DNA of 64,000 nt, from contig JBMNMG010000002.1 in NCBI GenBank assembly GCA_050953245.1, forward strand, positions 266,903-330,902, written 5' to 3'. This DNA comes from Bacteroidales bacterium. Lineage in GTDB: Bacteria; Bacteroidota; Bacteroidia; Bacteroidales; BM520. Under the pieces are notes generated by a model that saw nothing but the letters and a program-made list of their open reading frames with translations, did not search any database and was not told where the DNA came from. Below are positions 19,489-51,368 of this stretch, in pieces. Made by a program: the position numbers and the translations under genes. Each line of letters opens with the position of its first letter. The stretch's first letter is position 1.

Positions 19489-19560
19489 AAAATCGGGAAG
19501 CCATCCCATTATAAAGCTTGAAAATTTCTTATATCAAAAAAATTATTATATTTGCAATGT

Positions 19561-19680
19561 AATTCTTCGGGGCGGGGTGTAATTCCCGACCGGCGGTAAA
19601 AGTCCGCGAGCCTTTATTAAGCAAAAGGTTGATTTGGTGAAATTCCAAAACCGACGGTAAAGTCCGGATGGAAGAAGTTA
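19561..19680 (+). promoter_or_regulatory. FMN riboswitch (RFN element)
   Basis: P1 TTCTTC/GAAGAA plus conserved GGGGCGGGGTGTAATTCCCGACCGGCGGTAAAAGTCCGCGAGC ... GGTGAAATTCCAAAACCGACGGTAAAGTCCGGATGGAAGAAG; directly upstream of the rib operon. Confidence 0.9.
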
Positions 19681-19747
19681 ATTATGTATTTGTATTTCAA
19701 AATTTTCCTTTCATTATTAACAAGCTCCGATAAATTTTATTGTGATT

Positions 19748-21046
19748 ATGCAGAATGCTAATGATATAAAATTTATGTGTAGAGCTATTGAGTTAGCAGA
19801 ATTAGGTAGAGGATTTACCAACCCTAATCCCTTAGTAGGTGCGGTAATTGTGTATAATAATGAGATTGTGGCATCAGGTTATCATGCACAATATGGGGCG
19901 CCTCATGCCGAAAGAGATGCCATTCAAAATTACATTAATTCCGGTAGAGATACTTCATTATTATCTAAAAGTACAATGTATGTTACCTTAGAGCCTTGTA
20001 ACCATTATGGAGTTACGCCTCCATGTACCGAAATTATCATTCAATATAATTTTAAAAGGGTAGTTGTAGGATTGAAAGATCCAAATCCTAAGATGGCAGG
20101 TAAAAGTCTTAGTTTGTTAAGATCAAAAGGTATTGAGGTCGATTTAATTGATAATGAAGAGATTCTTTCACTTCTAAAGAATCAAAATAAAATTTTTCTA
20201 AAGTATATCACTACTAAAAAACCTTATATGTTGATGAAAGTTGCCACTACTTTAGATGGTAAAATAGCAACTCATTCTAAAACTTCAGAAGCTATAAGCA
20301 ATGAACTTTCCCATACTTTTGTGCATTTTGCACGTCACAATTATGCCGGAATTATGGTAGGAAAAAACACTGTTTTGTCCGATAATCCATCCCTAAATTG
20401 CAGATTAAATTTGAAGAATGAGAATTACGACAAGCTGATAGATATTTATACTAAATATCTGATTGTTAACTTGTCTAATCATTATGAAGATAATACCAAT
20501 AAGAATATTAATATTAATATCAATTATACGGATATTGCAAAGAATTTTCTAAAGAAACTGAGTGTAGAAGGCGTTAAAAATCCGGTTAGAGTAATCGTAT
20601 CTTCGAAAGCGGATTTAGATATTAATTTTAATGTATTTCAGAATTTGGATAAATGTAGGACTCTTATAACTTACCTGAACTCTGAAAGTTTAAAAACTAT
20701 ACAAACTTTAAATGAGAAAGGAGTTGAAACTTTGTTAGTTGAGGGTTTGGATAATAAGAATGTTATCAATTTAGAATCGTTATTAGTAGAGCTTGGTAAG
20801 TTAAAGATAGATTCAATTTTATTAGAAGGTGGAGGCAATTTAAACTTTTCGTTTTTAGAGAACAATTTAATAGATGAGGTTTTATATTTTATTTCACCAA
20901 AGTTAGTTGGAGGTAAAGATGCTATTTCATCAGTAGAAGGGAAAGGTTTTGATTCAATTAAGGATGCTGTTTTATTAGATAAATCTTCAATAATAACACA
21001 ATATATAGATGGAGATATTTTAATTTCCGGAAAAATTTTAAAATAA
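19748..21046 (+). CDS. ribD: Bifunctional riboflavin biosynthesis deaminase/reductase RibD
   Basis: CMP/dCMP deaminase zinc motifs HAERDA and PCNHYGVTPPC; reductase C-terminal half with a ~50-aa N-rich insert. A GTG at 19742 is an alternative start. Confidence 0.9.
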   Translation: MQNANDIKFMCRAIELAELGRGFTNPNPLVGAVIVYNNEIVASGYHAQYGAPHAERDAIQNYINSGRDTSLLSKSTMYVTLEPCNHYGVTPPCTEIIIQYNFKRVVVGLKDPNPKMAGKSLSLLRSKGIEVDLIDNEEILSLLKNQNKIFLKYITTKKPYMLMKVATTLDGKIATHSKTSEAISNELSHTFVHFARHNYAGIMVGKNTVLSDNPSLNCRLNLKNENYDKLIDIYTKYLIVNLSNHYEDNTNKNINININYTDIAKNFLKKLSVEGVKNPVRVIVSSKADLDINFNVFQNLDKCRTLITYLNSESLKTIQTLNEKGVETLLVEGLDNKNVINLESLLVELGKLKIDSILLEGGGNLNFSFLENNLIDEVLYFISPKLVGGKDAISSVEGKGFDSIKDAVLLDKSSIITQYIDGDILISGKILK

Positions 21047-38144: not shown

Positions 38145-41100
38145 CTAATTAGTTTTAAGAAATTTATCATTCGAAATCGTTTTGTTGTCTTTAACAACAA
38201 TAAAATATAATCCTTCCTTAAAGTTGTTTACATCAATTGAAATTTTATTATCATCACAATTTATTGTTTTAACCAAAATCCCGTTTACGTTGTATATAGA
38301 AATATTTTTAATCTTATTATTGCTTTCTACATTGATAATGTTTTTTACAGGATTTGGATAAATAATAATTTCTGAATTAACAGATGTTTCTTTTACTGAA
38401 AGAATATTATCTAAAACAAGTGCAAAGTTTGGAATACCATAACCGTAATCAATATAATGGTCAGGATATTTACTTGATGTGGAATTAATAATTTGTTTTA
38501 ATTCTTTAGGCTTTAATGAATTATTTGCTTGAATTAAACAAGCTACCATTCCGCACGAAATAGGGCTTGAAAAGGAAGTTCCACTACCTTCTTCTATTTC
38601 ATTATTAGGTCTTAATACAGTAGAGTTTACACCTAAGGCACAATAATCAGGTTTTGGATAATTATTGCTATTATTTCCCAGTGAACTAAAACTTGCAATT
38701 TCGTTGTTAATATCAACAGCACCTATTGTTGCAGCTTCTTCAACATCAGCAGGAGTTCCTATTTGAGACCAATGCGAGCCATTGGAATTTCCGGCACTTA
38801 CACTTACATAAATTCCTCTTTCAGTTGCCATTTTGCAACCAATTGAAGAAGGACAAGTACTTCCGTCCATATCTGAAAATACATGATCCATTGAACTATC
38901 GTCAAAAGTGGAATAGCTTAAAGAAGAATTTATTATTTCCGAACCAATACTATCAGCTATTTCTGCACCTTTAACCCAATTGAATTCTTCAATAAGATAT
39001 TCTGAAAAAGCATCTTCAGTTCTTATTAAGATGTATGAAGCTTCAGGAGCTGTACCTACAAATTCATTCGGTAAATATGAAGCCATACAAGATAAAACAG
39101 AAGTCCCATGGCTATTTCCGGTAGGTGAATAAATATCTCCATATTTTTCAACTAAATCGCTTGTATAAATGATTTTGTTATTGTCAAATAAATGTTGCAA
39201 TCCGGTAAGTTGGTTAACATTATTAAAACCTGCATCTAATACTGTTATTATGATTCCATCACCTTTATATCCTGCATCGTGAACAGGAATACCGTTAATT
39301 TGATTAATTTGACCAAAACCTTGTCCATAAACAGATTTATTGTCAATATTATCTATTTGAGAATAATTAATTTTATCCCATTTGTTATTAAGACTTGTAT
39401 TATTAGACATTTCAGGACAAACATAAACAATACTGTCAATAAAGGTTAAGTTGTTGATACTTTCGATTAAACTATCATTTGCATAAACTACAACACAATT
39501 AAGCCATTTGCTTGCATAATTTACAATTGCGCTTGTATTTGCAATTTGATTAATATATTCCGGATTAACAGGTAAATCATCTGTAGTAATAGGAATGTTT
39601 AGCAATTGTCTTCTTGCAATAGCTCTTTCTGATAAATATTCAGAAGGATTATCAATGCTATACGGAGAATTGTTTTTATCCTTTAAGAATACGGCATATT
39701 GAGGAAATGACGGAATATCAGAAATTATTATACTCTCGCAAACTTCCATAGAAACACTGTTTTCGCAAACAGATTCTATACAGTAGTCATGTTGTCCCAT
39801 AGGAACACCAAAATCGGTAAATGTTGTATTTTCAGTATAACCTATAAAAATTAAATCTCGATAGATATTATATCCCAAAGGTGAATTTTCCGGTTCGTTC
39901 CATGATAAATTAACATTTGCGATAGAAGTATTTAATGTTAAATTTGTAACTTCACTACAAGCTTCATATGAGTTAATAATACAATTATTTATAAATGTAT
40001 AAAGCAACCCTGATTGAAGCATCGAAGGTGATGAATAAATAATATTTCCTGATGCGTCCTTTACTGTAAAAGAACATTCATCATCATAAGCTCCGGATAT
40101 CCATGTTAAACTTACTTCAATACCTGTTTCTACTTCAATGGCAAATTCCGCAAATGCTCCCGATTCTAAGGTTAATTCTTGTGAAGGTGCTCCATTACTA
40201 AATTCAACTTTTAATATTGCATCATTCCAACCATCACCGTAATCATCGGTAAAACTAAAAATAAGATCACAAGATTCTTTATATAAAAAATCGATTACAG
40301 TTTCAGTTCCAAGACCATCAGTTAATTTTAAAGTAAAAGGAATATTAATATTTTCAGTCGGGAATGATGACAATGATGTTATATCAAATAATGTCGATTT
40401 AATTTCATTAACTTCCATATTCCCAACTAAATCAGTGTTTGTATTTATTACAATATTGTTATCCGATGACTCTAATTCGGCTACAATATTATTTGCCGGG
40501 ATATTTCCATTATTCAGAATATTAATAATAAATATAAAGTTTTCGTTCGGATCTATTTTACCATCATCATTACCTTCTGAATCATCAATAACATAAGAGT
40601 CTAAAATAATTTCATAACCACTTATATCAGCGGTAAAGTAAATAATACAATCTCCGGAACTTAGTTGAACAGATCCTTTGAATAAAATACCTTCATTTAC
40701 CGGAATACCTTGCGATACGGAAAAAGAAAGTGCGTTATTGATGGTTACTGATTCATTACTATTTAAGTCAGGCAAACTTGCAACACTGTCTATTAATGTA
40801 ACATATTGATTATCTGTTGAAAAAACAATATCAGACATGATACTCATATTTACATCAGAAATATTTTTAAAAGTTAAATTTAATGAAACAGTTTCATTAG
40901 TATTAATTTGTCCATCATTATTGCCTTGGTTATCGTTTACAGTATAGCTTTCAACTTGCAATGGATTCAAACTTAATAATATTTCAAGTGCCTCATCATA
41001 ATCGGGGATACCGTAACCGTAAGTAGTACTATGGTTTGGATATCTATCACCTGTAGAATTTACAATTTGTAATAAATCCATAGGTTTAATTAAAGGATTT

Positions 41101-42374
41101 GCTTGAATTAAACAAGCAATCATGCCGGCAGTTATAGGACACGAAAAAGATGTACCATCGGCATATGAAATACTTCCTTCTGTACTAATTACAGTTGCAT
41201 CAATACCTCGTGCACAGATATCAGGTTTTGGATCTCCTGCACCGTTTGGTCCAATTGAACTAAAAAATGCTATCTCTCCAGCTGCATCTACTGCTCCAAC
41301 AGTGGCTACACTTACCACATCAGCTGGTGGACTTACCCAACGCCAATCATAAAGAATGAAGTTGGAATTACCTGCACTGCATGTAACAAAAATACCTTTT
41401 TCTGTAGCTAACTTAGCAGCTTTAGAACATGGAAGAGTTTCTCCATCTGATTGGTAGTATTCAAAATCCATTGATTCATCGTCAAAAGTGCTATATCCCA
41501 ATGATGTACTTATCAGATCACACCCTAAGCTATCGGCTGCTTCTGCACCAATAGCCCAATTATAAGGTTCAATTAAATATTCTTCGTTTGCATTTTCTGT
41601 TCTAATTAAAGCAAAAGCTGCTTCAGGAGCCGTACCAACAAACTCCCCAACTAAGTTAGTTGCAATACATGATAAAACATTAGTTCCATGGTTACTTGTA
41701 TTTGAATAAATGTTTCCTCCTTTAACTACAAAGTCCTTTTCAAAAACTATCCTATTTTCTTCATATAAGACATCAAAAGCAGGAATATTATTTAAATTGT
41801 CAAAACCTGCATCTATTACACCGATCAGAATTCCTTTTCCTCTAAACCCTTTATTATGAACAGGTATTCCGTTAATCTGGTTTATCTGCTCAAAACCATG
41901 ACCGTAATAATCGTTTTTACTTGTATTTTTATCTACCGGCTTAAAATTATTTTCGTTTTCGAGCTTATCCTTATGCTTACTTACAAAATTGGGATCTCTT
42001 GTTTCTTCATCTTTAGTATAATTCCCTGGGCTAATGTAAACTACACTCTCAACGTAAGGTAATTGCTGGATAGTATTAACAAGAGAAGAATTGCACGATA
42101 TTAATGCAACATTTAACCATTTTGATGTAAAACCAATAACAGCACCTACTTCGCTTAGCCCATTAACATATTCAGGATTTACAGGCAAATCCGTTTCATC
42201 TATAGGAATATTAAATTTTATTCTCCTTTCAATAGATCTTTGCGATAAAAATTCTTCAGGATTATTAATTGAATAAGGTGAATTGTTTTTATCTGTAAAA
42301 TGTACAGCATATTTTTGTCCTAACATACTGATGGACAAAAGAATAGATAATAAAAGCAAATAATATTTTCTCAT
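38145..42374 (-). CDS. T9SS-secreted protein with two complete subtilisin-like (S8) propeptide+catalytic modules
   Basis: Module 1 triad contexts VIDAGF / NHGTNVLSC / GTSFSCP; module 2 VLDAGF / SHGTSVLSC / GTSFSSP; both preceded by homologous pro-regions (YAVHFTDKNNSPYSINNPEEFLS vs YAVFLKDKNNSPYSIDNPSEYLS); C-terminal IYPNPVKN...LYFIVV CTD. Confidence 0.85.
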   Translation of the reverse strand: MRKYYLLLLSILLSISMLGQKYAVHFTDKNNSPYSINNPEEFLSQRSIERRIKFNIPIDETDLPVNPEYVNGLSEVGAVIGFTSKWLNVALISCNSSLVNTIQQLPYVESVVYISPGNYTKDEETRDPNFVSKHKDKLENENNFKPVDKNTSKNDYYGHGFEQINQINGIPVHNKGFRGKGILIGVIDAGFDNLNNIPAFDVLYEENRIVFEKDFVVKGGNIYSNTSNHGTNVLSCIATNLVGEFVGTAPEAAFALIRTENANEEYLIEPYNWAIGAEAADSLGCDLISTSLGYSTFDDESMDFEYYQSDGETLPCSKAAKLATEKGIFVTCSAGNSNFILYDWRWVSPPADVVSVATVGAVDAAGEIAFFSSIGPNGAGDPKPDICARGIDATVISTEGSISYADGTSFSCPITAGMIACLIQANPLIKPMDLLQIVNSTGDRYPNHSTTYGYGIPDYDEALEILLSLNPLQVESYTVNDNQGNNDGQINTNETVSLNLTFKNISDVNMSIMSDIVFSTDNQYVTLIDSVASLPDLNSNESVTINNALSFSVSQGIPVNEGILFKGSVQLSSGDCIIYFTADISGYEIILDSYVIDDSEGNDDGKIDPNENFIFIINILNNGNIPANNIVAELESSDNNIVINTNTDLVGNMEVNEIKSTLFDITSLSSFPTENINIPFTLKLTDGLGTETVIDFLYKESCDLIFSFTDDYGDGWNDAILKVEFSNGAPSQELTLESGAFAEFAIEVETGIEVSLTWISGAYDDECSFTVKDASGNIIYSSPSMLQSGLLYTFINNCIINSYEACSEVTNLTLNTSIANVNLSWNEPENSPLGYNIYRDLIFIGYTENTTFTDFGVPMGQHDYCIESVCENSVSMEVCESIIISDIPSFPQYAVFLKDKNNSPYSIDNPSEYLSERAIARRQLLNIPITTDDLPVNPEYINQIANTSAIVNYASKWLNCVVVYANDSLIESINNLTFIDSIVYVCPEMSNNTSLNNKWDKINYSQIDNIDNKSVYGQGFGQINQINGIPVHDAGYKGDGIIITVLDAGFNNVNQLTGLQHLFDNNKIIYTSDLVEKYGDIYSPTGNSHGTSVLSCMASYLPNEFVGTAPEASYILIRTEDAFSEYLIEEFNWVKGAEIADSIGSEIINSSLSYSTFDDSSMDHVFSDMDGSTCPSSIGCKMATERGIYVSVSAGNSNGSHWSQIGTPADVEEAATIGAVDINNEIASFSSLGNNSNNYPKPDYCALGVNSTVLRPNNEIEEGSGTSFSSPISCGMVACLIQANNSLKPKELKQIINSTSSKYPDHYIDYGYGIPNFALVLDNILSVKETSVNSEIIIYPNPVKNIINVESNNKIKNISIYNVNGILVKTINCDDNKISIDVNNFKEGLYFIVVKDNKTISNDKFLKTN

Positions 42375-42425
42375 ATCATTAAAATTAAGAAGTAAATAAA
42401 TAACGAAGATACATATTTTTATTAA

Positions 42426-43458
42426 TTAACGTGAGTTCGACTTAAGCAACTACTATTCTTTTTTCATCAATAATATCTTTATTGATGTTTATTGAAGGCT
42501 TTTTGTCGAAAAAAGAATACGCTGCCAAAGCAGATAACAGATTGATAATAAAGCTATCAAAACTTCTGTGACGTGTATGTTCAATCTGACAAATGTTCTT
42601 TAATTCATCATTTACTTATTCTATTAAAGCTCTTTTGCGAAGCATAATTCTATCATGTAAAAGCAAGAGAGCATTTTTCATATTTTTTCGTAGTTTGGTA
42701 ATTAAATGTACACCGTCAACAAAAAGTTGTTCAAACAAATTTTTACTGATATATCCTTTATCTCCAAAGAGTTTGCCAAAAATACGTTTATGCAAGTCCA
42801 TATTTTTCAGTGGTTCTCTGTCATCAACATTGCCGGGTGTAAGAATAAAATCTAAGATTTCGCCTTTGTCATTGATTATCAAATGAAGTTTGAATCCATA
42901 AAACCAACCCAAAGAACATTGTCCTTTTTGTGCTATATTTTTGAAAGTTTTGTGTTGTTTTTCTCTTTTTATGTGGCAACTACGAATAGGCGTAGAATCA
43001 ATAAAGGAGATTCCTGTACACTTACCTAGACACATCATTTTAACAAAGACAGCCAGCGGTACACATACTTTTCGCTGTAGTTCAACAAAACGATTATAGG
43101 AAACTGTTTGTGGAAAGTCTTTTTGCATATGCTTTTGGACGTAAAAGACATAAAAGCTTTTCAAGTTTTTGAACGATGCACTGTGAAACAAAATTAAGAT
43201 TGTCATTACTTCACTTTCTGACATTGTAAACTTGCGGTTTCTTTTCTTTGTTTGTTCACTTGGTAAGGAGTATTCTTTGATAGTTTTATCAAATTCTTTG
43301 AAAAACTCATCGATTATGAAATAAATTTCAGTAACTTTATGGTCTGGAATCATAGCAGAATTGTTAGTATATATTTGAAATTCAGAACTTTAAAATTACT
43401 GATTTTTCTGCTGGATTCCTAATATTTAAGCACTTTTCTTACATCGAACTCACGTTAA
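42426..43458 (-). mobile_element. IS982-family insertion sequence, copy A (transposase inactivated by a nonsense mutation)
   Basis: Terminal inverted repeats TTAACGTGAGTTCGAC ... ATCGAACTCACGTTAA; about 6 substitutions relative to copy B, no indels. Confidence 0.85.
42616..43353 (-). pseudogene. IS982-family DDE transposase truncated at codon 246 (TCA to TAA)
   Basis: Identical to the copy B protein for 245 aa; plus-strand T at 42617 versus G at 50527 creates a stop right after RALIE, removing the end of the R(3)E(6)K signature and 58 aa. Confidence 0.85.
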
Positions 43459-43651
43459 AGTACTCTTTATACTGCTCTCTGATAAATATTGTCCATGCCA
43501 CTATCCCAACAAGTAACGAACCGGTTGATGCCCACGCACCCCATTTCCAAGTTCCTACATAGCTAAAAACAAGCGGAAAAATATAGAGAAAAAAGAAACT
43601 AAGCCCTGTTTTATTATTCGTATTCATAATCTTCTCATTTTTAATAATCAA
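43439..43651 (-). CDS. Small (70 aa) two-TM membrane protein; C-terminus and stop codon come from the IS end
   Basis: Two hydrophobic helices; abuts the upstream gene (43652); the last five codons (NVSSM) and the stop lie in the IS inverted repeat. Confidence 0.4.
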   Translation of the reverse strand: MIIKNEKIMNTNNKTGLSFFFLYIFPLVFSYVGTWKWGAWASTGSLLVGIVAWTIFIREQYKEYFNVSSM

Positions 43652-44050
43652 TTAACGCATTTCAAATAGTGTCACATTGCCGTCTATATCTGCTTCAAAG
43701 CTATAGTCAGCACGAGCACCGCTTAAGCTCATATTCCAACTCTGCTTGTGAGGAAAGTAATAAAAGGTTGTACCGGACGGAAGTTCGGCGCCTTCAATGT
43801 CGACTAGTCGCTTTAAGCCCTCGGTAAAGACTTTATGTGCCGTTCGCAATTTAATAGAACTAAACGGATAAATTTTTTTATCTATATTTTCCATATCGCT
43901 TTTGCTCAACTTTTTGGGATCTTCTTTACGCCATTTATCGGTTTTGGTCTCATACCAATACCAATCTGCCTCACTCTTATTCTGTGGATTAATGGCAATT
44001 ACTCTTACCCTGTCGTCTTCTACGAAAATAGGTCCTGTAAAAAGCATCAC
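43652..44050 (-). CDS. Hypothetical protein, 132 aa, no recognisable family
   Basis: Uninterrupted ORF in a tightly packed same-strand four-gene array; composition matches the cargo. Confidence 0.5.
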   Translation of the reverse strand: MMLFTGPIFVEDDRVRVIAINPQNKSEADWYWYETKTDKWRKEDPKKLSKSDMENIDKKIYPFSSIKLRTAHKVFTEGLKRLVDIEGAELPSGTTFYYFPHKQSWNMSLSGARADYSFEADIDGNVTLFEMR

Positions 44051-44061
44051 TTCATCCGTTT

Positions 44062-44448
44062 TCAGAAATTGATAAAGTTCTTTCTGATTTCTTCAAGTTT
44101 ATCAGGTTGAAAAAGCAGGGAAATTTCCGTATTATTCCATTTTTCCATCTCCTTCTTCACCATATGCTCTACTGCTTCCATCTGTTTTTTATCAAATTCG
44201 CTACCGGATTCATCTACAACAGCACGAAACTCTTTTAGTGCCTCCTCAAGTGTTTTCTCTCTTTGCTTGCCGCTACTACCACTTAAAGAACCAGGACTGT
44301 TAAAAGCGTCTGACAATTCTTTCTGCCGATTTTCTTCATTGCCAAATGTTTCGCTGAAAGCATTTTTCACCTTATCGCATGAAGTGAAGAAAAGCATCCC
44401 TACAAATAAGGGTACTAACAAAAATTTCCTTTTCATATTCTTAATCAT
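44062..44448 (-). CDS. Hypothetical lipoprotein, 128 aa
   Basis: Lipobox LFFTSC after a basic/hydrophobic leader; charged helical remainder; ATGA overlap with the upstream gene. Confidence 0.55.
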   Translation of the reverse strand: MIKNMKRKFLLVPLFVGMLFFTSCDKVKNAFSETFGNEENRQKELSDAFNSPGSLSGSSGKQREKTLEEALKEFRAVVDESGSEFDKKQMEAVEHMVKKEMEKWNNTEISLLFQPDKLEEIRKNFINF

Positions 44449-44939
44449 TCCTTTATATCAATAATTATTGGATAAAAAGATGCCGTTAATGGTAAATATT
44501 TAATGGTGAGTCGCTCGCCATCGCTATAGTATTTAGTCATATGATGCTCCAACAACGACGCATCTTGATAGGTGCTGTCAGGGAGTTGAAACACAAAATA
44601 ATATCGGTCAATATGATGATAATTCAACATAATTCCGGAATATTCTGATTTGTACATAACTGCTTCAGTCGGTGTGCCGTAATGGTTCACAATAGCACGA
44701 ACTATTTTTCCGTTAACGAAGGAGTTAATTACAAACACTACGAATAGAGCAATTCCTAAAATCAACAGAGTTGCTGCAGTTTTGTCTTTAAACGACATGA
44801 TTTTCTTTTTGTCAAATTTAAATGTGCCACCCAATAGTCTTCTGAAAAGACCTATTACTAAAGCTAGTATAAGGACTAATACAATCACTCCCCAGCCCGA
44901 TTTTACAGTAAATGCTATTAAAGTTGCTATAAATTCCAT
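44445..44939 (-). CDS. Hypothetical membrane protein, 164 aa (two N-terminal TM helices plus a beta-rich C-terminal domain)
   Basis: TM segments at about aa 5-30 and 55-75; first gene of the minus-strand array, divergent from the DUF134 gene. Confidence 0.55.
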   Translation of the reverse strand: MEFIATLIAFTVKSGWGVIVLVLILALVIGLFRRLLGGTFKFDKKKIMSFKDKTAATLLILGIALFVVFVINSFVNGKIVRAIVNHYGTPTEAVMYKSEYSGIMLNYHHIDRYYFVFQLPDSTYQDASLLEHHMTKYYSDGERLTIKYLPLTASFYPIIIDIKE

Positions 44940-45047
44940 TATTATTATTTGTAATTGTTCTATATCATTTTACTTTTAACCCATAACATAAAATGAGAAT
45001 ACTTTGTTCATGGAGCAAATTTATTTAATAATTTTGTAACATTAAAT

Positions 45048-45059
45048 GAACATATGTTC
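45048..45059. promoter_or_regulatory. Perfect 12-bp palindrome GAACATATGTTC in the divergent control region (candidate operator)
   Basis: Lies 11 nt upstream of a TATATTTG -7-like box (45071-45078) and 45 nt upstream of the DUF134 start codon. Confidence 0.3.
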
Positions 45060-45104
45060 TAAACTTTTGTTATATTTGTACAGTAATTCAAAACCAAAAA
45101 CAGC

Positions 45105-45545
45105 ATGTCACGTCCAAAACAGTGTAGAAAAATTAAGTCACCGCCATTGATGTCGGGTTTTAAACCGTTTGGTATTCCACGTTCGATAACGGGAGGAGTA
45201 GTTTTGCAATACGATGAGTACGAGGCAATTCGATTGTTGGACTACGAAGGATTATTGCAGGAAGAGGCTGCCGAAAGGATGAATGTATCGCGTCCCACGC
45301 TTACACGAATTTATGCCAAAGCAAGAAAAGCGGTTGCCAAAGCATTTGTAGAAGGGAAATCGTTGGTGATTGAGGGCGGAAATGTAGAGTTTGGTGGAAA
45401 ATGGCATCGTTGTGGTCGATGCAATAGGGTTATGAATGGCAGACACAGGCACAATCAATATTGCGGAAATTGCAAAAAGCAAGAAATTGATGAGTCTGAA
45501 TTAACAAATAAAGATAATCAAAATGAGAATAGTAGTATTATCTGA
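45105..45545 (+). CDS. DUF134 (UPF0251) family putative DNA-binding protein with C-terminal CxxC...CxxC zinc-ribbon extension
   Basis: MSRPKQCRKI..P....FKP.G, EYEAIRLLDYEGLLQEEAAERMNVSRPTLTRIY (sigma70-r4-like HTH); tail CGRC...CGNC. Confidence 0.8.
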   Translation: MSRPKQCRKIKSPPLMSGFKPFGIPRSITGGVVLQYDEYEAIRLLDYEGLLQEEAAERMNVSRPTLTRIYAKARKAVAKAFVEGKSLVIEGGNVEFGGKWHRCGRCNRVMNGRHRHNQYCGNCKKQEIDESELTNKDNQNENSSII

Positions 45546-46353
45546 CAATAGGGCAAAATCATCGGATTTTGAAACCGAACATGGTTTATCTGTTTATCTT
45601 GAAACAGATAGCTATAACTGTTTGTTGGATGTGGGTGTATCGGACCTGTTTGCACGCAATGCCAAATTGATGAATATCGATTTAAGTGATGTGGACTATC
45701 TCTTTATCTCTCACGGACATGCCGACCATATTGGTGGATTACCTTCGTTTTTAGAGATAAACCAAAAAGCTAAAATCGTTGTCTCTTCGCGGATATTAAA
45801 TCGGGAGTATTACTCATCAAGAAACAGCATGAGAAAAATAAGCATCGATTTTGATTTTGATACGCTAAAAGAAAGACTGATTACTGTGGATGAAAAAGCA
45901 CAATTTGAAGAGGATATTGCTGTTTTTATCCCAAAAATCAAAAATCACCCGATGCCAAAAGCCAATCGTCTGCTTTTTAAAAATATCGGCGATGAATTGG
46001 TAAATGATGATTTTGATCACGAGGTAATTATTACTTTTGGGAAAGAGAGAAAGTTTGTCTTTACAGGATGCGGACATAGCGGTTTGCTGAATATTTTGGA
46101 AAGCGCAACAGCCGAACAAGCCGGACAAATAGCTGCCGTGATGGGTGGATTTCACCTGCTGGACAGTAGAAACGGAATGACGTTTGAAACTGAAAAAGAG
46201 ATAAAAGAATTGGGCGAAACTCTGAAAACTCGTTTTCCCGAAACTCTTTTTGTAACGGGACATTGTACGGGCGATACAACTTTTAATCAGTTGAAAAGCA
46301 TTTTGGGAGAGCAGATTACACAATTTTATGTTGGATATGAATTAAAAATTTAA
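45523..46353 (+). CDS. MBL-fold metallo-hydrolase
   Basis: HGHADHIGG (HxHxDH) motif, later GCGHSG and GGFHL; 23-nt overlap with the DUF134 gene. Confidence 0.8.
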   Translation: MRIVVLSDNRAKSSDFETEHGLSVYLETDSYNCLLDVGVSDLFARNAKLMNIDLSDVDYLFISHGHADHIGGLPSFLEINQKAKIVVSSRILNREYYSSRNSMRKISIDFDFDTLKERLITVDEKAQFEEDIAVFIPKIKNHPMPKANRLLFKNIGDELVNDDFDHEVIITFGKERKFVFTGCGHSGLLNILESATAEQAGQIAAVMGGFHLLDSRNGMTFETEKEIKELGETLKTRFPETLFVTGHCTGDTTFNQLKSILGEQITQFYVGYELKI

Positions 46354-46417
46354 CACGAAGAATTAATAGTAGGATAAAAAATAAGTCAGATATTTCACTT
46401 AATCTATTTATTAGTTA

Positions 46418-46539
46418 CCACGCCATTTATGGCGTGGATGATAAGAAAGTATCAAATGGGCTTTAGCCCAATAGTAAATAAATTTAGGCTAAAGCCTAAT
46501 AAAAATAAATCATTAATCTCCACGGCTTTAAAGCCGTGG
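46418..46539 (+). repeat. Array of four GC-rich palindromic hairpins in the MBL / NifX-like intergenic spacer
   Basis: CCACGCCATTTATGGCGTGG (46418-46437), GGGCTTTAGCCC (46458-46469), TTAGGCTAAAGCCTAA (46484-46499), CCACGGCTTTAAAGCCGTGG (46520-46539). Confidence 0.8.
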
Positions 46540-46594
46540 CAATTGATATTAGGAAAAAATATATTCAAAACGCATTAATATTTTAAATAATTAT

Positions 46595-46900
46595 ATGAAA
46601 ATCGCAATTGTATCAGAAAAAGAGAGTTTAGACGCACGAATTGATAGTCGTTTCGGGCGTTGTGCCTATTTTGCTATCTACGACACCGATAGCAAAACAA
46701 CAGAGTTTTTTCCAAATCCGGCGAAGGATTCACCCGAAGGAGCAGGTCCGGCAGCTGTGAAATTCGTCGCATCGAAAGGAGTAAAGAAGGTAGTGGCACC
46801 CGAATTTGGAGGAAAAGCGGAAACTATGCTAGAAAAGCTTCAAATCGAAATGGTTAGCGAGAAAGATAAAACTATTTCGGAAATTATTAGAGGTTTCTAG
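46595..46900 (+). CDS. NifB/NifX/NafY-family (dinitrogenase FeMo-cofactor-binding fold) small protein
   Basis: MKIAIVSE...RFGRCAYFAIYD, GAGPAAVKFVASKGVKKVVAPEFGGKA, the typical Nitro_FeMo-Co domain pattern. Confidence 0.8.
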   Translation: MKIAIVSEKESLDARIDSRFGRCAYFAIYDTDSKTTEFFPNPAKDSPEGAGPAAVKFVASKGVKKVVAPEFGGKAETMLEKLQIEMVSEKDKTISEIIRGF

Positions 46901-46955
46901 TAATTATAGGAAGATAGTGAAGTTTATTATTATGAACTAAAAGTTAGAAACAAAA

Positions 46956-47312
46956 ATGAAAGTACTTATTATTTTCAATCGTGAACCATATGACAACACA
47001 GATGTAACATGGAACGGGCTTAGGCTTGCAGATACTCTAAGAAACAAAGGACATGAAGTAAGGATTTTCCTTATGAATGATTCTGTTGATATGGCAAGAG
47101 ATGCTTGTAAAGCACCGGAAAATTATGATCAAGATTTATCGCAAATGCTTAAAGACTTAATTGCCAATGGTGTTTCGGTAAAAGTTTGTGGTACTTGTAT
47201 GGCTCGTTGCGGGATTTATAAAAACCATCCATATTTTGAAGGAGCAAATAAATCTACAATGGGTGAATTAGCAGAATGGGTAGTTGATAGCGACAAGGTT
47301 TTGACATTTTAA
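46956..47312 (+). CDS. DsrE/DsrF/TusD-like sulfur-relay fold protein
   Basis: MKVLIIFNREPY...ALRLA..L...GHEVRIFLMNDSV...GVSVKVCGTCMARCGI...DKVLTF matches the DsrE-family layout. Confidence 0.72.
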   Translation: MKVLIIFNREPYDNTDVTWNGLRLADTLRNKGHEVRIFLMNDSVDMARDACKAPENYDQDLSQMLKDLIANGVSVKVCGTCMARCGIYKNHPYFEGANKSTMGELAEWVVDSDKVLTF

Positions 47313-47418
47313 CAAAGTAAATAATCCTTTTATTTACAACTATTATTATAAGTGTTTCAAAATCAGCAACAAACTATAACGCTAAATATTATTTAAAAAG
47401 AATGTTTAATTAAAAAAA

Positions 47419-47462
47419 GGTATCTAATAAGCAACGTAGCAGCTGGATACTTATTAGATACC
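47419..47462. other. 13-bp perfect stem hairpin just upstream of the DUF5320 gene
   Basis: GGTATCTAATAAG (47419-47431) / CTTATTAGATACC (47450-47462), 18-nt loop; a U-tract exists only for the minus-strand reading (A7 at 47412-47418). Confidence 0.6.
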
Positions 47463-47486
47463 GCTAATAAAAAAGGAGAAATAATT

Positions 47487-47750
47487 ATGCCAAGATTTAA
47501 TCAACAAGGTCCCATGGGAGAAGGTCCAATGACAGGACGAAAAATGGGCAAATGCACCAATTACGGTGAAAACAATAGTTCTGCAGAAGAACAAGTAAAT
47601 GTAGGTAGAGGCGGAAGAGGCTTCGGTATGGGAAGATGTCGTCGTGGATTTCAAGACAACGATGGACTAAGTCAAGGTCGCGGTTTTGGACGTGGCAGAG
47701 GTCGCTCAGGTCAAGGACAAGGCAGAGGCAGAAGAGGTTTTTCAGACTAA
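47487..47750 (+). CDS. DUF5320-like protein with arginine-glycine (RGG/RG) rich C-terminal half
   Basis: N-terminal MPRFNQQGPMGEGPMTGRKMGKC matches the DUF5320 signature; C-terminal GRGGRGFGMGRCRRGF...GRGFGRGRGRSGQGQGRGRRGF; AGGAG-like motif 8 nt upstream. Confidence 0.65.
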   Translation: MPRFNQQGPMGEGPMTGRKMGKCTNYGENNSSAEEQVNVGRGGRGFGMGRCRRGFQDNDGLSQGRGFGRGRGRSGQGQGRGRRGFSD

Positions 47751-47759
47751 ATTTCAAAA

Positions 47760-48131
47760 ATGAAGAATATGACACAAAAAATTGCTATCCCGATGGAAAA
47801 CGGGCAACTATCTACTCATTTCGGACATTGCCAATATTTCGCGATTGTTGCAGTAGAGGACAAAAAAATTGTAGAGATAACAAAACAGATTCCACCTGAG
47901 CACAAACCCGGTGTATATCCGAGATGGGTTGCATCACTTGGTGTAACCGATGTTATCGCAGGCGGTATCGGTCAACGAGCTATTGACCTTTTCAACGAGC
48001 AGGGTATCAACGTATTTGTTGGTGCACCCGTAAAAAGCGAAGAGGAAATTGTAAATGAATTTTTAGCCGGAGAACTTTCTCTGAGCGCTAACTATTGTAA
48101 TCATGACGGGGATCACCATAGCCATTGCTAG
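47760..48131 (+). CDS. NifB/NifX-family small protein with Cys/His-rich C-terminal tail
   Basis: KIAIPMENGQLSTHFGHCQYFAIV, VIAGGIGQRAIDLF; tail CNHDGDHHSHC. Confidence 0.8.
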   Translation: MKNMTQKIAIPMENGQLSTHFGHCQYFAIVAVEDKKIVEITKQIPPEHKPGVYPRWVASLGVTDVIAGGIGQRAIDLFNEQGINVFVGAPVKSEEEIVNEFLAGELSLSANYCNHDGDHHSHC

Positions 48132-48984
48132 CGGCAAAGGCGGCACAGGTAAAACCTTTATTTCGACCAACCTATTCAACTCGCTGCGAGATAGCGGGTT
48201 GAATATGGCTTTGGTGGATTGCGACGCTGAGGCACCCAACGACAGGGAGTTTCTGCGAGAGGGAGTATTGCAAACTACGCAACCAGTTACTCAAAAAATT
48301 CCCGTTATCGACAAATCGAAATGCACTTACTGTGGAAAATGTGATGAATACTGCAACTTCAACGCTTTCTTTTTCCTAGAAGAACCACAAACTATCGAGG
48401 TGTTGGAAGAACTTTGTCACGGTTGCGGTGCTTGTTCCGTTGCCTGCGAATATGGAGCAATAACCGAGAAAGATGACCTTTTGGGAAAAATCAATCGATA
48501 TAAATTTCCAAACGGCAATGAGCTGATTGAAGGCAAAATGGAGGTCGGAGTTCATGTCTCGGTTCAGATAATTAAGGAATCGATTAAAGCAGCCGAAAAT
48601 TTCGATTTGGTATTGCTCGATTCGCCACCCGGAACAGGCTGTCCTTTTATTCAAACAGTTTACAAAGCCGATTATGTGGTATTAGTTACGGAGCCTACAC
48701 CTTTCGGACTTAGCGACTTAAAGCAATCGGTGGAGATTTTGAGAGAGATGAAAATTCCGTGCGGAGTTATTATCAATCGGGCAGATTTGGGAACCGATGA
48801 GGCTCTCAACTATCTGCAACAGGAAAATATTCCATTGCTTATGAGCGTGCCGTTTGACAGAGAAATTGCCGTTGCATACTCTAAAGGCGATATGATTACG
48901 AATTTGAGCAGCGAATGGCGTGAAAAATTCAATCAATTATACCGAAACATAAAAGAGGATTTTCAAAAAGTAAAGACAAAGTAA
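48103..48984 (+). CDS. MinD/ParA-superfamily P-loop ATPase with inserted 2x[4Fe-4S] ferredoxin domain
   Basis: Deviant Walker A IASGKGGTGKTF; CTYCGKCDEYC and CHGCGACSVAC cluster motifs; DSPPGTGCP switch region. Confidence 0.85.
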   Translation: MTGITIAIASGKGGTGKTFISTNLFNSLRDSGLNMALVDCDAEAPNDREFLREGVLQTTQPVTQKIPVIDKSKCTYCGKCDEYCNFNAFFFLEEPQTIEVLEELCHGCGACSVACEYGAITEKDDLLGKINRYKFPNGNELIEGKMEVGVHVSVQIIKESIKAAENFDLVLLDSPPGTGCPFIQTVYKADYVVLVTEPTPFGLSDLKQSVEILREMKIPCGVIINRADLGTDEALNYLQQENIPLLMSVPFDREIAVAYSKGDMITNLSSEWREKFNQLYRNIKEDFQKVKTK

Positions 48985-48986
48985 TT

Positions 48987-49856
48987 ATGGAATTAGCGAT
49001 AATCAGCGGAAAAGGCGGAACAGGAAAAAGCAGTATCAGCGCGGCATTTGCCACCCTTCAGAAAGAAGTAGTTTTGGCAGATTGCGATGTGGATGCGGCA
49101 AATCTCTACTTGCTTTTTAATCCCGTTTGTGATGAGGAACATGTTTTTGTTTCGGGACAAAAGGCAGTACTCGATAAAGATAAATGTATAGATTGTGGTA
49201 TTTGTGTGGATTACTGCCGTTTCGATGCCATTGAGGAGAATGAACAAGGAGTTTCTATCGTGGAAACACTTTGCGAAGGTTGTCTTTTGTGCGCTCGTGT
49301 TTGTCCGCAAGATGCCATTACCATTGAAGAGGAAGACAGAAGTCGCTACTATGCCGGACAATTTAAAAACGGCAAAATGGTCTATGGACGACTTGCTCCG
49401 GGTGAGGAAAACAGCGGTAAATTGGTCAGCAAAGTTCGTGAGAAAGCAAAAGAGATAGCAGAAAAGTCCGATATAGAACATATTATTATTGACGGACCGC
49501 CGGGAATCGGTTGTTCGGCAATCAGTGCCATAACTGGAGTTGATGCGGTACTTGTGGTAACAGAACCGTCCGTGTCAGGCGTTCACGATTTGAAACGTAC
49601 GCTACAACTTACCAAAAGTTTTAACCTGCCGACAAGCGTTTTGATAAATAAATACGATATAAATCGGGAAGTTTCGACTGAAATAGAAGCTTATTGCAAT
49701 GAAAACGGCATCGCTGTTATCGGCAAACTACCATTCGACCCGATTGTTGTGGAGGCTATGGTTAATTGCGCTTCAATTACCGACTATACTCCTGAGTCAG
49801 AGATAAGTAAACTGATAGAAAAAGCTTGTTCTACTATTTTTTCTACTACTCCTTAG
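48987..49856 (+). CDS. Second MinD/ParA-superfamily ATPase with inserted 2x[4Fe-4S] ferredoxin domain (paralog)
   Basis: ISGKGGTGKSS; CIDCGICVDYC and CEGCLLCARVC; DGPPGIGC. Confidence 0.85.
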   Translation: MELAIISGKGGTGKSSISAAFATLQKEVVLADCDVDAANLYLLFNPVCDEEHVFVSGQKAVLDKDKCIDCGICVDYCRFDAIEENEQGVSIVETLCEGCLLCARVCPQDAITIEEEDRSRYYAGQFKNGKMVYGRLAPGEENSGKLVSKVREKAKEIAEKSDIEHIIIDGPPGIGCSAISAITGVDAVLVVTEPSVSGVHDLKRTLQLTKSFNLPTSVLINKYDINREVSTEIEAYCNENGIAVIGKLPFDPIVVEAMVNCASITDYTPESEISKLIEKACSTIFSTTP

Positions 49857-50116
49857 TTACCCAAGGAGTGGTAGCTATGCCTTATCAGTAAACACTTAAG
49901 TGAAAAACTTAATAAAAACTTAATATCCTTTTTTTTATACTTTTAAGCAATACAACTACTTTTGTATCGGACTGGATTTTAGAAGTATGAAAAACAAAAC
50001 CACATTTTAGGATTTTTGTGTCTAACGCTTTTATATTGGTTGGGAAGTTTCTCAACTAATATTATTTAGTGTGCATAACTGATTAATATCTGGTAATCTA
50101 TACATTAAACAAAAAA

Positions 50117-50344
50117 ATGAAAAAACCAATTAGTGAAATGGAGTTAGCTGCGGATAAAAAAATCGAGATTATACTAATTGCAGGAATAGCTATTCTGACA
50201 GTAATATTAGTTGTGGGAGTTTTTGCTTATAGAAATTACGATATCCTAAATGAAAACTTCCCGGAAGTAAAAGGTTATAAATTCGGTTTTACCGAGGATA
50301 TTGTGAAGTTGAAAGATGGAACTGAAATTTATTATTTAACGTGA
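50117..50344 (+). CDS. Small single-TM ORF (75 aa) whose reading frame runs into IS copy B
   Basis: One TM helix (IEIILIAGIAILTVILVVGVFAY); the last codons and the TGA stop lie in the IS inverted repeat (TTAACGTGA). Confidence 0.35.
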   Translation: MKKPISEMELAADKKIEIILIAGIAILTVILVVGVFAYRNYDILNENFPEVKGYKFGFTEDIVKLKDGTEIYYLT

Positions 50345-51368
50345 GTTCGACCTAAGCAACTACTATTCTTTTTTCATCAATAATATCTTTATTGATGTTT
50401 ATTGAAGGCTTTTTGTCGAAAAAAGAATACGCTGCCAAAGCAGATAACAGATTGATAATAAAGTTATCAAAACTTCTGTGACGTGTATGTTCAATCTGAC
50501 AAATGTTCTTTAATTCATCATTTACTGATTCTATTAAAGCTCTTTTGCGAAGCATAATTCTATCATGTAAAAGCAAGAGAGCATTTTTCATATTTTTTCG
50601 TAGTTTGGTAATTAAATGTACACCGTCAACAAAAAGTTGTTCAAACAAATTTTTACTGATATATCCTTTATCTCCAAAGAGTTTGCCAAAAATACGTTTA
50701 TGCAAGTCCATATTTTTCAGTGGTTCTCTGTCATCAACATTGCCGGGTGTAAGAATAAAATCTAAGATTTCGCCTTTGTCATTGATTATCAAATGAAGTT
50801 TGAATCCATAAAACCAACCCAAAGAACATTGTCCTTTTTGTGCTATATTTTTGAAAGTTTTGTGTTGTTTTTCTCTTTTTATGTGGCAACTACGAATAGG
50901 CGTAGAATCAATAAAGGAGATTCCTGTACACTTACCTAGACACATCATTTTAACAAAGACAGCCAGCGGTACACATACTTTTCGCTGTAGTTCAACAAAA
51001 CGATTATAGGAAACTGTTTGTGGAAAGTCTTTTTGCATATGCTTTTGGACGTAAAAGACATAAAAGCTTTTCAAGTTCTTGAACGATGCACTGTGAAACA
51101 AAATTAAGATTGTCATTACTTCACTTTCGGACATTGTAAACTTGCGGTTTCTTTTCTTTGTTTGTTCACTTGGTAAGGAGTATTCTTTGATAGTTTTATC
51201 AAATTCTTTGAAAAACTCATCGATTATGAAATAAATTTCAGTAACTTTATGGTCTGGAATCATAGCAGAATTGTTAGTATATGTTTGAAATTCAGAACTT
51301 TAAAATTACTGATTTTTCTGCTGGATTCCTAATATTTAAGCACTTTTCTTACATCGAACTCACGTTAA
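50336..51368 (-). mobile_element. IS982-family insertion sequence, copy B (intact transposase)
   Basis: Same 1033-bp element and inverted repeats as copy A, offset exactly 7910 bp. Confidence 0.88.
50352..51263 (-). CDS. IS982-family DDE transposase (303 aa)
   Basis: DDE contexts FIDSTPI, GDKGY and RALIESVNDELK (R-3-E-6-K signature); size and element length (~1 kb) fit IS982. Confidence 0.88.
   Translation of the reverse strand: MIPDHKVTEIYFIIDEFFKEFDKTIKEYSLPSEQTKKRNRKFTMSESEVMTILILFHSASFKNLKSFYVFYVQKHMQKDFPQTVSYNRFVELQRKVCVPLAVFVKMMCLGKCTGISFIDSTPIRSCHIKREKQHKTFKNIAQKGQCSLGWFYGFKLHLIINDKGEILDFILTPGNVDDREPLKNMDLHKRIFGKLFGDKGYISKNLFEQLFVDGVHLITKLRKNMKNALLLLHDRIMLRKRALIESVNDELKNICQIEHTRHRSFDNFIINLLSALAAYSFFDKKPSININKDIIDEKRIVVA

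Follow-up and report, generated by a model that had tools for sequence, protein, structure and literature searches.

An eight-gene module between two IS982 copies is probably a Bacteroidales-type orp (orange protein complex) cluster

Results

A candidate orp cluster in a Bacteroidales contig

We analyzed a 64,000-nucleotide (nt) stretch of a Bacteroidales bacterium contig (JBMNMG010000002.1, positions 266,903 to 330,902; the whole stretch is called the window below) and found that an array of eight same-strand genes at 45105-49856 is most probably a Bacteroidales-type orp (orange protein complex) cluster. We put the probability of this reading of the sequences at roughly 0.9. A wider reading, in which the cluster lies on a Petrimonas-like slice of DNA flanked by copies of the insertion sequence (IS) IS982 and works by the ATP-driven metal-sulfur mechanism proposed below, is likely as a whole. 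The first-pass annotation of this DNA had described eight genes with small gaps or overlaps, assigned each to a protein family and quoted a set of motifs, and all of this held up. The eight open reading frames (ORFs) are present on the plus strand, separated by -23, +241, +55, +174, +9, -29 and +2 nt, and profile hidden Markov model (HMM) searches placed every module assignment above the curated Pfam cut-off (Table 1). The motifs comprise HGHADH (HxHxDH) in the metallo-beta-lactamase (MBL)-fold protein, FGRC in one NifX-like protein (NifX-A) and FGHC in the other (NifX-B), a DUF134 tail with CGRC...CGNC, the NifX-B C-terminus CNHDGDHHSHC and, in each of the two ATPases, the Walker A sequence GKGGTGK[TS] and two CxxCxxCxxxC ferredoxin motifs.

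The orp genes of Desulfovibrio vulgaris form two operons, orp5-orp4-orp3 and orp7-orp8-orp9, around the gene for the sigma-54 activator OrpR, and Orp3, Orp4, Orp5, Orp8 and Orp9 form a physical complex (PMC6345978, PMC8359166). The paralogues Orp3 and Orp4 each contain two [4Fe-4S] motifs and carry a MinD-like helix at the C-terminus, and Orp8 is the orange protein (ORP), a NifX-fold protein with a non-covalent Mo-Cu-S cluster (PMC6345978, PMC8359166). In Orp9, or MrpORP, an Mrp domain is joined to a Di-Nase domain, the site of a [3Fe-4S]-type cluster (-445 mV); Orp3, Orp4 and Orp8 were purified together, showed Fe-S absorbance and can receive clusters from MrpORP (PMC6345978). A complex of this kind, with Fe-S or heterometal clusters bound, is known only for the D. 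vulgaris and D. gigas proteins. Expression of orp occurs only at low redox potential, under redox control by OrpR, which is confined to Deltaproteobacteria (PMC8359166).

Five of these components have homologues in the module: the DUF134 protein, an Orp8-type protein, a Di-Nase domain and an Orp3/Orp4-type ATPase pair. We take DVU2107 to be the DUF134 protein of D. vulgaris. NifX-A aligns with Desulfovibrio gigas ORP (PDB 2WFB; E = 8.3e-7, 31% identity), as well as with the structures of TM1290 (E = 1.1e-10) and MTH1175 (E = 2.8e-8). For NifX-B no alignment with D. gigas ORP was obtained; it matches positions 263-365 of the NCBIfam MrpORP model NF041136 (119 bits, E = 2.2e-34; the model's cut-off is 450) and TM1816 (1T3V/1O13; E = 2.5e-17). 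Its motifs HFGHC, PPEHKPGVYP and CNHD...HC are those described for the MrpORP Di-Nase domain (PMC6345978). ATPases A and B are paralogues with 32% identity.

Taken together, the module and the Desulfovibrio orp cluster share DUF134 as first gene, an orange-protein-like NifX-fold protein, paired 2x[4Fe-4S] MinD-type ATPases and the MrpORP-type Di-Nase domain, as well as restriction to anaerobes and a published history of horizontal transfer for orp (PMC6345978, PMC8359166). They differ in that the Di-Nase homologue of the window stands alone, lacking the Mrp/NBP35 P-loop domain, and that the module has no OrpR or sigma-54 promoter. Its genes form one operon-like array rather than two divergent operons, include MBL-fold, YchN-type and DUF5320 genes, and lie between IS982 copies.

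Synteny with Desulfobacterota orange-protein loci

To compare gene order, we scanned with D. gigas ORP, taking one genome per species, and obtained 80 Desulfobacterota loci (L023-L102) whose orange proteins are 60-94% identical to 2WFB. The scan yielded loci of the D. gigas type and not the locus of D. vulgaris Hildenborough. These loci were then searched with the window proteins, and completeness was counted in the 46 loci of at least 15 kb. Both ATPases were found in 44 of these 46 and a second NifX-like gene in all 46. Across the Desulfobacterota loci NifX-A is the best-scoring window protein for the ORP orthologues and NifX-B for the NifX gene downstream, and the usual order is DUF134 - (DUF134::)ORP - ATPase A-like - ATPase B-like - NifX-B-like. 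ATPase A has its best match in the first ATPase gene, so that the A-like gene precedes the B-like gene as in the window, and a Pfam scan of one locus (L102) confirmed the architecture. These results show that five families, and the order of the paralogues from A to B, are common to the window cluster and to bona fide orange-protein loci.

The second NifX gene, adjacent in both settings, stands alone in the D. gigas-type loci (such as L021 and L102), as it does in the window, but it follows the ATPases there and precedes them in the window. The D. gigas-type loci differ further in that ORP is often fused to DUF134 and in that a PAS/sigma-54 activator may lie upstream. An example of the latter is the Desulfonatronovibrio locus (L021), where an OrpR-like gene is located just upstream, as in D. 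vulgaris. The MBL gene occurs in only 4 of the 80 loci, the DsrE-like gene in none, and DUF5320 was detected in a single one by a search that is insensitive for this family.

The in-frame fusion of DUF134 to a Nitro_FeMo-Co domain, with the ORP domain C-terminal, was seen at L102:8569-9357 and in about 40 of the 80 Desulfobacterota loci. A second, stand-alone DUF134 gene frequently lies upstream of it. The ORP purified from D. gigas was a free protein of about 12 kDa, which, set against a fused ORF, suggests that an internal start is used or that the fusion product is processed.

Core and accessory genes of the Bacteroidales version

In Bacteroidota and related loci the arrangement is DUF134-(MBL)-NifXA-(DsrE)-DUF5320-NifXB-ATPaseA-ATPaseB. 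All eight genes are present in two Petrimonas-type loci (L016 and L017), a third locus (L018) has the array without the DsrE-like gene, and a fourth (L019) has it without both the MBL and DsrE-like genes. The gene content of these four loci thus defines a local core of DUF134, NifX-A, DUF5320, NifX-B, ATPase A and ATPase B. Since the order recurs in contigs labelled Bacteroidota and Ignavibacteria, and the core set in Desulfobacterota, the arrangement is not a product of chance. Identity to ATPase B is 100% for a protein from a metagenome-assembled genome (MAG) labelled Bacteroidales bacterium, 98% for one from a Petrimonas MAG, and 83-88% for proteins labelled Bacteroidaceae, Fermentimonas and Ignavibacteria.

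The MBL gene, found in L016-L018 but not in the L019 array, is an occasional accessory, the DsrE-like gene is a lineage-specific add-on, and DUF5320 is core in Bacteroidales. The first-pass annotation had noted that DsrE/TusD proteins relay persulfide sulfur. The gene is absent from L018, L019 and all 80 Desulfobacterota loci, and for this reason we do not regard such a relay as a core feature. DUF5320 is the sole small Cys-containing candidate for Orp5 in the module, and a DUF5320 gene also lies near ORP-type genes in two further loci (L022 and L083). Maiti and co-workers reportedly described, in 2016, an orp core of the orange protein and two Fe-S ATPases. The two papers on the D. vulgaris system are consistent with such a core (PMC6345978, PMC8359166).

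The orp system has been known since 2007-2011, and the locus itself would not surprise a specialist. What is new here is a Bacteroidales member without the Mrp domain or OrpR, the accessory MBL and YchN-type genes, and a recent transfer associated with IS982.

Conserved features of the module proteins

In each ATPase exactly nine cysteines are invariant, judged from 77-78 sequences of the two phyla. Eight lie in the two CxxCxxCxxxC motifs and one in the switch-II sequence PPGxGC (in ATPase A, C74, C77, C80, C84, C105, C108, C111, C115 and the switch-II C180), and the signature Lys of the deviant Walker A motif is kept as well. In an AlphaFold (AF2) monomer model of ATPase B, with a predicted local distance difference test (pLDDT) score of 89.4, the nearest folds are archaeal MinD, FlhG, BcsQ and NifH, the nitrogenase Fe protein. 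No solved structure with an inserted ferredoxin domain in an ATPase of this kind was found. The likeness to NifH extends to a Pfam Fer4_NifH score of 39.6 bits on ATPase A (cut-off 25), and the pairing of an Fe-S ATPase of this class with NifX-fold carriers is shared with the NifH and NifX/NafY/NifB-C proteins of nitrogenase maturation. In contrast to NifH, the Fe-S clusters would sit in the inserted ferredoxin domain and not at the Cys97/Cys132 bridging site, with one switch-II Cys conserved. The genes nifDK, nifEN and nifB are absent from the module, in agreement with the first-pass statement that this is not a nitrogenase.

In the DUF134 protein the N-terminal Cys7 is invariant, and the C-terminus forms a CxxC...C(xxC) tail, of which the first CxxC and the third Cys are kept in L016, L018 and L019, but not the fourth. 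The closest solved relatives of the MBL protein, 2P4Z (E = 6.5e-35) and TM1679 (E = 2e-21), are uncharacterized structural-genomics proteins. DUF5320 begins with an invariant MPxxxxxGPxGxGPMTGRxxGxC motif containing one Cys and ends in a cationic Gly/Arg/Phe-rich tail (pI 12) whose 49 residues include 18 Gly, 12 Arg, 4 Phe and a single Cys, a character that is kept across the family. All 140 DUF5320 representatives are small, stand-alone proteins, and a NifX::DUF5320 fusion, sought among them as Rosetta-stone evidence, was found in none.

The DsrE-like protein matches Escherichia coli YchN (1JX7) over its full length (E = 7.7e-17) and conserves the Cys at the DsrE Cys78 position; YchN belongs to the DsrE family and its function is not known. 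The searches did not place the protein in a DsrEFH/TusBCD-type relay: it scored 34.9 bits against TusD (cut-off 89) and E = 0.77 against DsrE (2HY5), and no DsrF/H or TusB/C partner is present. Relatives 84-93% identical occur in MAGs labelled Bacteroidales, Flavobacteriales, Prolixibacteraceae, Cloacimonadota, Treponemataceae and Gammaproteobacteria; for so small a protein, such conservation, or else mobility, is unusually high. The neighborhoods of three of these relatives (L103-L105, from Cloacimonadaceae, Gammaproteobacteria and one unlabelled source) are unrelated. In DNA, the YchN-type gene also shares 70.7% identity with a plasmid-borne gene of Legionella oakridgensis.

Two IS982 copies flank a Petrimonas-like slice

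The foreign, IS-flanked context proposed for the module was confirmed. Two direct IS982 copies, identical at 1034 of 1041 positions (99.3%), lie on either side; the right copy scores 243 bits for DDE_Tnp_1_3 and 276 bits for NCBIfam transpos_IS982, and the terminal inverted repeats of the left copy are TAACGTGAGTTCGA / TCGAACTCACGTTA. The GC content of the module is 0.394, compared with 0.304 for the whole window. The cargo from 43455 to 50094 (about 6.6 kb) is 92-93.5% identical in DNA to L016/L017, where the locus is chromosomal and free of IS982, and where the ATPase B is labelled Petrimonas sp. by NCBI. From its sequence, the cargo is of foreign origin.

The eight module genes are accompanied by passengers (Table 1). 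The lipoprotein pseudogene is 95% identical in nucleotides to an intact 265-aa gene of L016, with one gap, and the 164-aa membrane protein, which has no Pfam or NCBIfam match, scores 346 bits against its L016/L017 homologue and is absent from L018, L019 and the other orp-type loci. The homology to the donor begins and ends inside donor genes, which argues for an arbitrary chromosomal slice rather than an evolved cassette. All eight orp-type ORFs are intact, with ratios of nonsynonymous to synonymous substitution rates (dN/dS) of 0.00-0.18 against L016 for seven of them, while the passengers are truncated or frameshifted, the signature expected of IS-mediated capture of such a slice. The first-pass annotation had argued from transposon carriage that the module is an autonomous unit. 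The flanking by IS982 stands, but the ends truncate neighboring genes and the IS copies do not delimit a functional cassette.

Mobility of the segment is largely supported by these data, and movement as a whole unit is suggested only. The hexamer ATTAAT is present at both outer ends if the IS termini are taken as TAACGTGAG...CTCACGTTA, a 6-mer that is palindromic and AT-rich, and the right IS alone is flanked by ATTATT/ATTAAT (5/6 match). Identical copies of the cargo were found in at least nine metagenome contigs from several samples. No empty insertion site was found among contigs with the flanking trpS or protease genes, all of which stop inside the IS. Carriage by plasmids was rejected, as PLSDB gave no match except for the DsrE-family gene on the Legionella plasmid, and carriage by phages likewise, as ATPase A had no phage match.

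Several contigs differ from the window around the IS copies. In one (L001:1-3428) other DNA lies left of the left IS982, including a GmrSD_N-domain gene, with a GC content of about 0.34, and not the type IX secretion system (T9SS) protease gene; the element may have a second insertion site here, or the assembly of this short-read metagenome contig may have crossed the repeat wrongly. In a second (L004; JGI 3300061354) the right end of the cargo runs through a hybrid IS982 into the left end of the cargo, the hybrid carrying single nucleotide polymorphisms (SNPs) 1-3 from the right copy and 4-7 from the left copy. A recombinational circle or tandem array would give such a join; this too is a short-read contig, and it opens with a chimeric 168-nt piece of the protease gene. 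In a third (L003; ENA ERZ28614712) the region of window positions 46367-47867 (NifX-A, DsrE and DUF5320) is tandemly duplicated. In a strain 85-92% identical in nucleotides over the trpS-side flank (L010; GCA_040436515.1, JBEFFC010024926.1) an IS982 end adjoins trpS and the contig stops inside the IS, suggesting that an IS at this site may predate the divergence of the strains or that the site is a hot spot.

Table 1. Features of the module and its surroundings, in window coordinates
Feature	Position	Strand	Details
IS982-family element, left copy	42418-43458	-	Transposase ORF 42616-43353; nonsense mutation leaves 245 aa
Passenger gene, 5' fragment	43459-43651	-	Truncated by left IS; homologue is a 317-aa L016 gene, 2682-3635
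Passenger lipoprotein pseudogene	43652-44448	-	1-nt frameshift gives 132-aa and 128-aa ORFs
164-aa predicted two-helix membrane protein	44445-44939	-	Divergent from DUF134; co-transferred intact
TATATTTG, putative Bacteroidetes -7 promoter	45071-45078	+	27 nt upstream of DUF134 start codon; consensus match
DUF134 (UPF0251) helix-turn-helix (HTH) protein, Orp7 type	45105-45545	+	PF02001, 88.9 bits
MBL-fold protein, accessory gene	45523-46353	+	Lactamase_B, 48.6 bits
Spacer between MBL gene and NifX-A	46354-46594		Intergenic; 232-bp stretch 46354-46585 carries four palindromes
NifX-A, orange-protein (Orp8)-like, IPR003731 / Nitro_FeMo-Co	46595-46900	+	PF02579, 69.5 bits
YchN-type DsrE-family protein, 118 aa	46956-47312	+	DsrE, 77.5 bits
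DUF5320 small protein	47487-47750	+	PF17253, 47.4 bits
NifX-B, stand-alone homologue of MrpORP (Orp9) Di-Nase domain	47760-48131	+	Nitro_FeMo-Co, 67.0 bits
ATPase A, MinD/NifH-class, inserted 2x[4Fe-4S] ferredoxin domain (Orp3/Orp4 type)	48103-48984	+	CbiA/ParA + Fer4
ATPase B, MinD/NifH-class, inserted 2x[4Fe-4S] domain	48987-49856	+	CbiA/ParA + Fer4
Cargo right end	49857-50327		Petrimonas-type homology stops at 50094 inside the donor's 241-aa gene; then a 75-aa ORF, 50117-50344
Terminator-like hairpin with T-rich tail	50033-50062	+	Downstream of ATPase B; consensus match only
IS982-family element, right copy	50328-51368	-	Intact 303-aa transposase, 50352-51263

Candidate regulatory signals

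The element TATATTTG upstream of DUF134 agrees with the Bacteroidetes -7 consensus, which we take to be TAnnTTTG, and may act as a promoter. The MBL/NifX-A spacer matches that of L016, in a Petrimonas-type locus that is otherwise 92-93% identical, in length and not in sequence, and the MBL gene is more diverged from that locus (85% in nucleotides) than its neighbors. Together these two features suggest a mosaic or recombination patch. Four short GC-rich palindromes lie in the spacer (CCACGCCAT..ATGGCGTGG, GGGCT..AGCCC, TAGGCT..AGCCTA and CCACGGCTT..AAGCCGTGG). An invertible promoter was considered for this spacer and rejected, as the sequence is unrelated to the Petrimonas-type spacer in either orientation and has no repeat elsewhere in the window. 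Control by a riboswitch or other RNA, such as a Moco riboswitch, was likewise rejected for the module (no Rfam match at E <= 1), and so was sigma-54 control of the Desulfovibrio kind, for which matches were at chance level.

Discussion

A proposed mechanism and the points against it

The general conclusion of the first-pass annotation, an ATP-dependent, Fe-S-rich unit for handling metal and sulfur with an HTH protein of its own, was right in outline. Deviant-Walker-A ATPases act as ATP-dependent dimers, and ATPases A and B could form an ATP-dependent heterodimer through these motifs, as in MinD, NifH and Mrp. ATP binding and hydrolysis would then gate low-potential electrons from the four [4Fe-4S] clusters; alternatively, the ATP cycle might open and close an interface site with the invariant switch-II Cys. 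The substrate may be an anionic, loosely bound metal-sulfide on the NifX-fold subunits (a Fe-S fragment or a thioferrate-like or Mo/Cu-thiometallate-like species) that would be loaded, reduced or released, and the cationic DUF5320 tail may help hold it as a clamp. Proteins of the IPR003731 family carry anionic clusters, namely NifB-co/FeMo-co, the thioferrate of IssA and the Mo-Cu-S cluster of ORP (PMC6345978). The outcome would be a machine that carries or processes metal-sulfur clusters and works only at very low redox potential, with the Cys-bearing DUF134 protein as a possible local regulator. In this general form, with the A/B ATPases driving the handling of metal-sulfide on NifX-fold subunits, we give the mechanism an even chance.

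Several points weigh against the identification of the module as an orp cluster and against the wider reading built on it. NifX-A is only 31% identical to ORP, and the equivalence to D. vulgaris DVU2103-2109 is drawn indirectly, through the ORP of D. gigas, the MrpORP model of NCBIfam and published descriptions. An NCBIfam scan of the module found no Mrp/NBP35 P-loop domain as in Orp9, and its ORF list and Pfam matches include no gene for OrpR or another enhancer-binding protein (EBP). The sigma-54 promoter TGGCAC-N5-TTGC has matches at chance level, none of them upstream on the plus strand. One paper suggests that the small protein Dde_3197 of strain G20 is NifX-like, which bears on DUF5320 as a candidate for Orp5. 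Family knowledge is the source of the proposed heterodimer and of the role given to the switch-II Cys, the model being one of an ATPase B monomer, and target-site duplications give ambiguous evidence that the unit transposes as a whole. For ORP complexes, neither substrate nor target has been defined by experiment in any organism, and their role was still called unclear in 2021 (PMC8359166). By the same token, the description of this ensemble as uncharacterized stands in that no defined function has been published for it (PMC8359166), and falls in that the system has already been studied as orp/ORP.

Alternative readings of the module

The idea that the module stores or detoxifies metal-sulfide draws on IssA of Pyrococcus furiosus, in which an IPR003731 domain and an unstructured cationic Gly/Arg/aromatic tail with one Cys bind thioferrate, as has been published. 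NifX-A would be the scaffold, the DUF5320 tail would wrap an iron-sulfide or thiometallate polymer, and the ATPases would load or mobilize it. MTH1175, which NifX-A matches, belongs to the published IssA clade, the composition of the DUF5320 tail is of the IssA kind and conserved in its family, and the orp genes of strain G20 co-vary with feoA and flavodoxin in one transcriptome study. In the window, however, domain and tail would be two proteins, and the likeness is known from sequence, with the tails resembling each other by composition and not by direct sequence comparison. Moreover, none of the 140 DUF5320 representatives is fused to NifX, the family was detected in only 1 of the 80 Desulfobacterota orp loci (by the insensitive search), and RG-rich tails bind nucleic acids too. 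We consider this storage reading doubtful. Its fullest version holds that NifX-A and DUF5320 together store an anionic polymer of Fe-S or thiometallate, like an IssA in two pieces, and that an Orp3/Orp4-type heterodimer would load or mobilize this store with ATP and low-potential electrons, all in a self-sufficient, transferable cassette. We are just as skeptical of this version; if true, it would assign a biochemical function to the ORP complex and explain the spread of ORP genes among anaerobes of sulfidic habitats.

The preferred reading, an orp cluster with ATPase-driven cluster handling, also has to be weighed against a role in cell organization. As first proposed for D. vulgaris, the ORP-type ATPases would be MinD-like positioning factors with a direct or indirect part in cell division or polar organization, and their Fe-S clusters mere redox sensors. 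Inactivation of orpR leads to morphological defects, MrpORP is polar, and Orp3 and Orp4 have MinD-like C-terminal amphipathic helices (PMC8359166, PMC6345978); in addition, MinD and FlhG are the nearest structural neighbors of the ATPase B model. Yet NifH-type Fe proteins are almost as close structurally, the constant partners of the ATPases are NifX-fold cluster carriers and not MinC/MinE-type proteins, and the nine invariant Cys per ATPase, with the link to the Mrp Fe-S carrier, point to metallocluster chemistry. A division factor would also be odd to find intact after IS-mediated transfer, and the original authors now call the role unclear (PMC8359166), so that positioning appears unlikely. 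Another view starts from the in-frame DUF134::ORP fusion in about 40 of the 80 Desulfobacterota loci, the invariant Cys7 and Cys-rich tails of DUF134 and its constant place as first gene of the array in Bacteroidota and related loci. The NifX-fold proteins would here be ligand sensors for DUF134, the cluster mainly a metal-sulfide or redox regulatory circuit, and the ATPases a means to reset the sensor. Two conserved ATPases with four [4Fe-4S] clusters seem heavy equipment for a sensor, D. gigas ORP crystallized as a 120-residue chain without a DUF134 domain (PDB 2WFB), and we know of no demonstration that DUF134 binds DNA. We regard the sensor circuit as quite unlikely. Finally, the cargo might be inert hitch-hiking DNA, a random fragment caught between two IS copies and heading for decay, as its truncated ends, the frameshifted passenger gene and the inactivated left transposase would allow. 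The intact eight ORFs with their low dN/dS against the Petrimonas-type copy, and the identical copies in metagenome contigs from several samples, speak against this, and we judge it very unlikely. A defense-island reading was rejected, since PADLOC gave only weak generic matches to MBL-containing models (28.7 and 21.3 bits).

Significance

Few anaerobe-specific gene sets that lack an assigned function are as widespread as ORP-type clusters; their ATPase family alone gave about 8,000 database clusters for one query. A minimal Bacteroidales version without Mrp or OrpR helps to define the core as DUF134, two NifX-fold proteins, two ATPases and, here, DUF5320. The cluster appears to have moved recently between Bacteroidales lineages in one piece and stayed intact while its passengers decayed, suggesting that the genes can function outside their native genome. 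The eight genes are therefore a practical 4.8-kb candidate for heterologous reconstitution, and the DUF134::orange-protein fusions and the IssA-like chemistry of DUF5320 provide testable functional leads. The locus alone does not answer what ORP complexes do, but as a compact, portable version it offers a convenient handle.

Other features of the window

The left IS982 is abutted by the gene for a 1409-aa secreted protein (38145-42374, minus strand) with two subtilase (Peptidase_S8) stretches, similar N-terminal propeptide-like sequences in its two halves and a C-terminal sorting domain for type IX secretion. Elsewhere in the window, a RibD-like deaminase/reductase gene at 19742-21046 has an FMN riboswitch upstream of it (19559-19685, plus strand; 118 bits, E = 5e-27).

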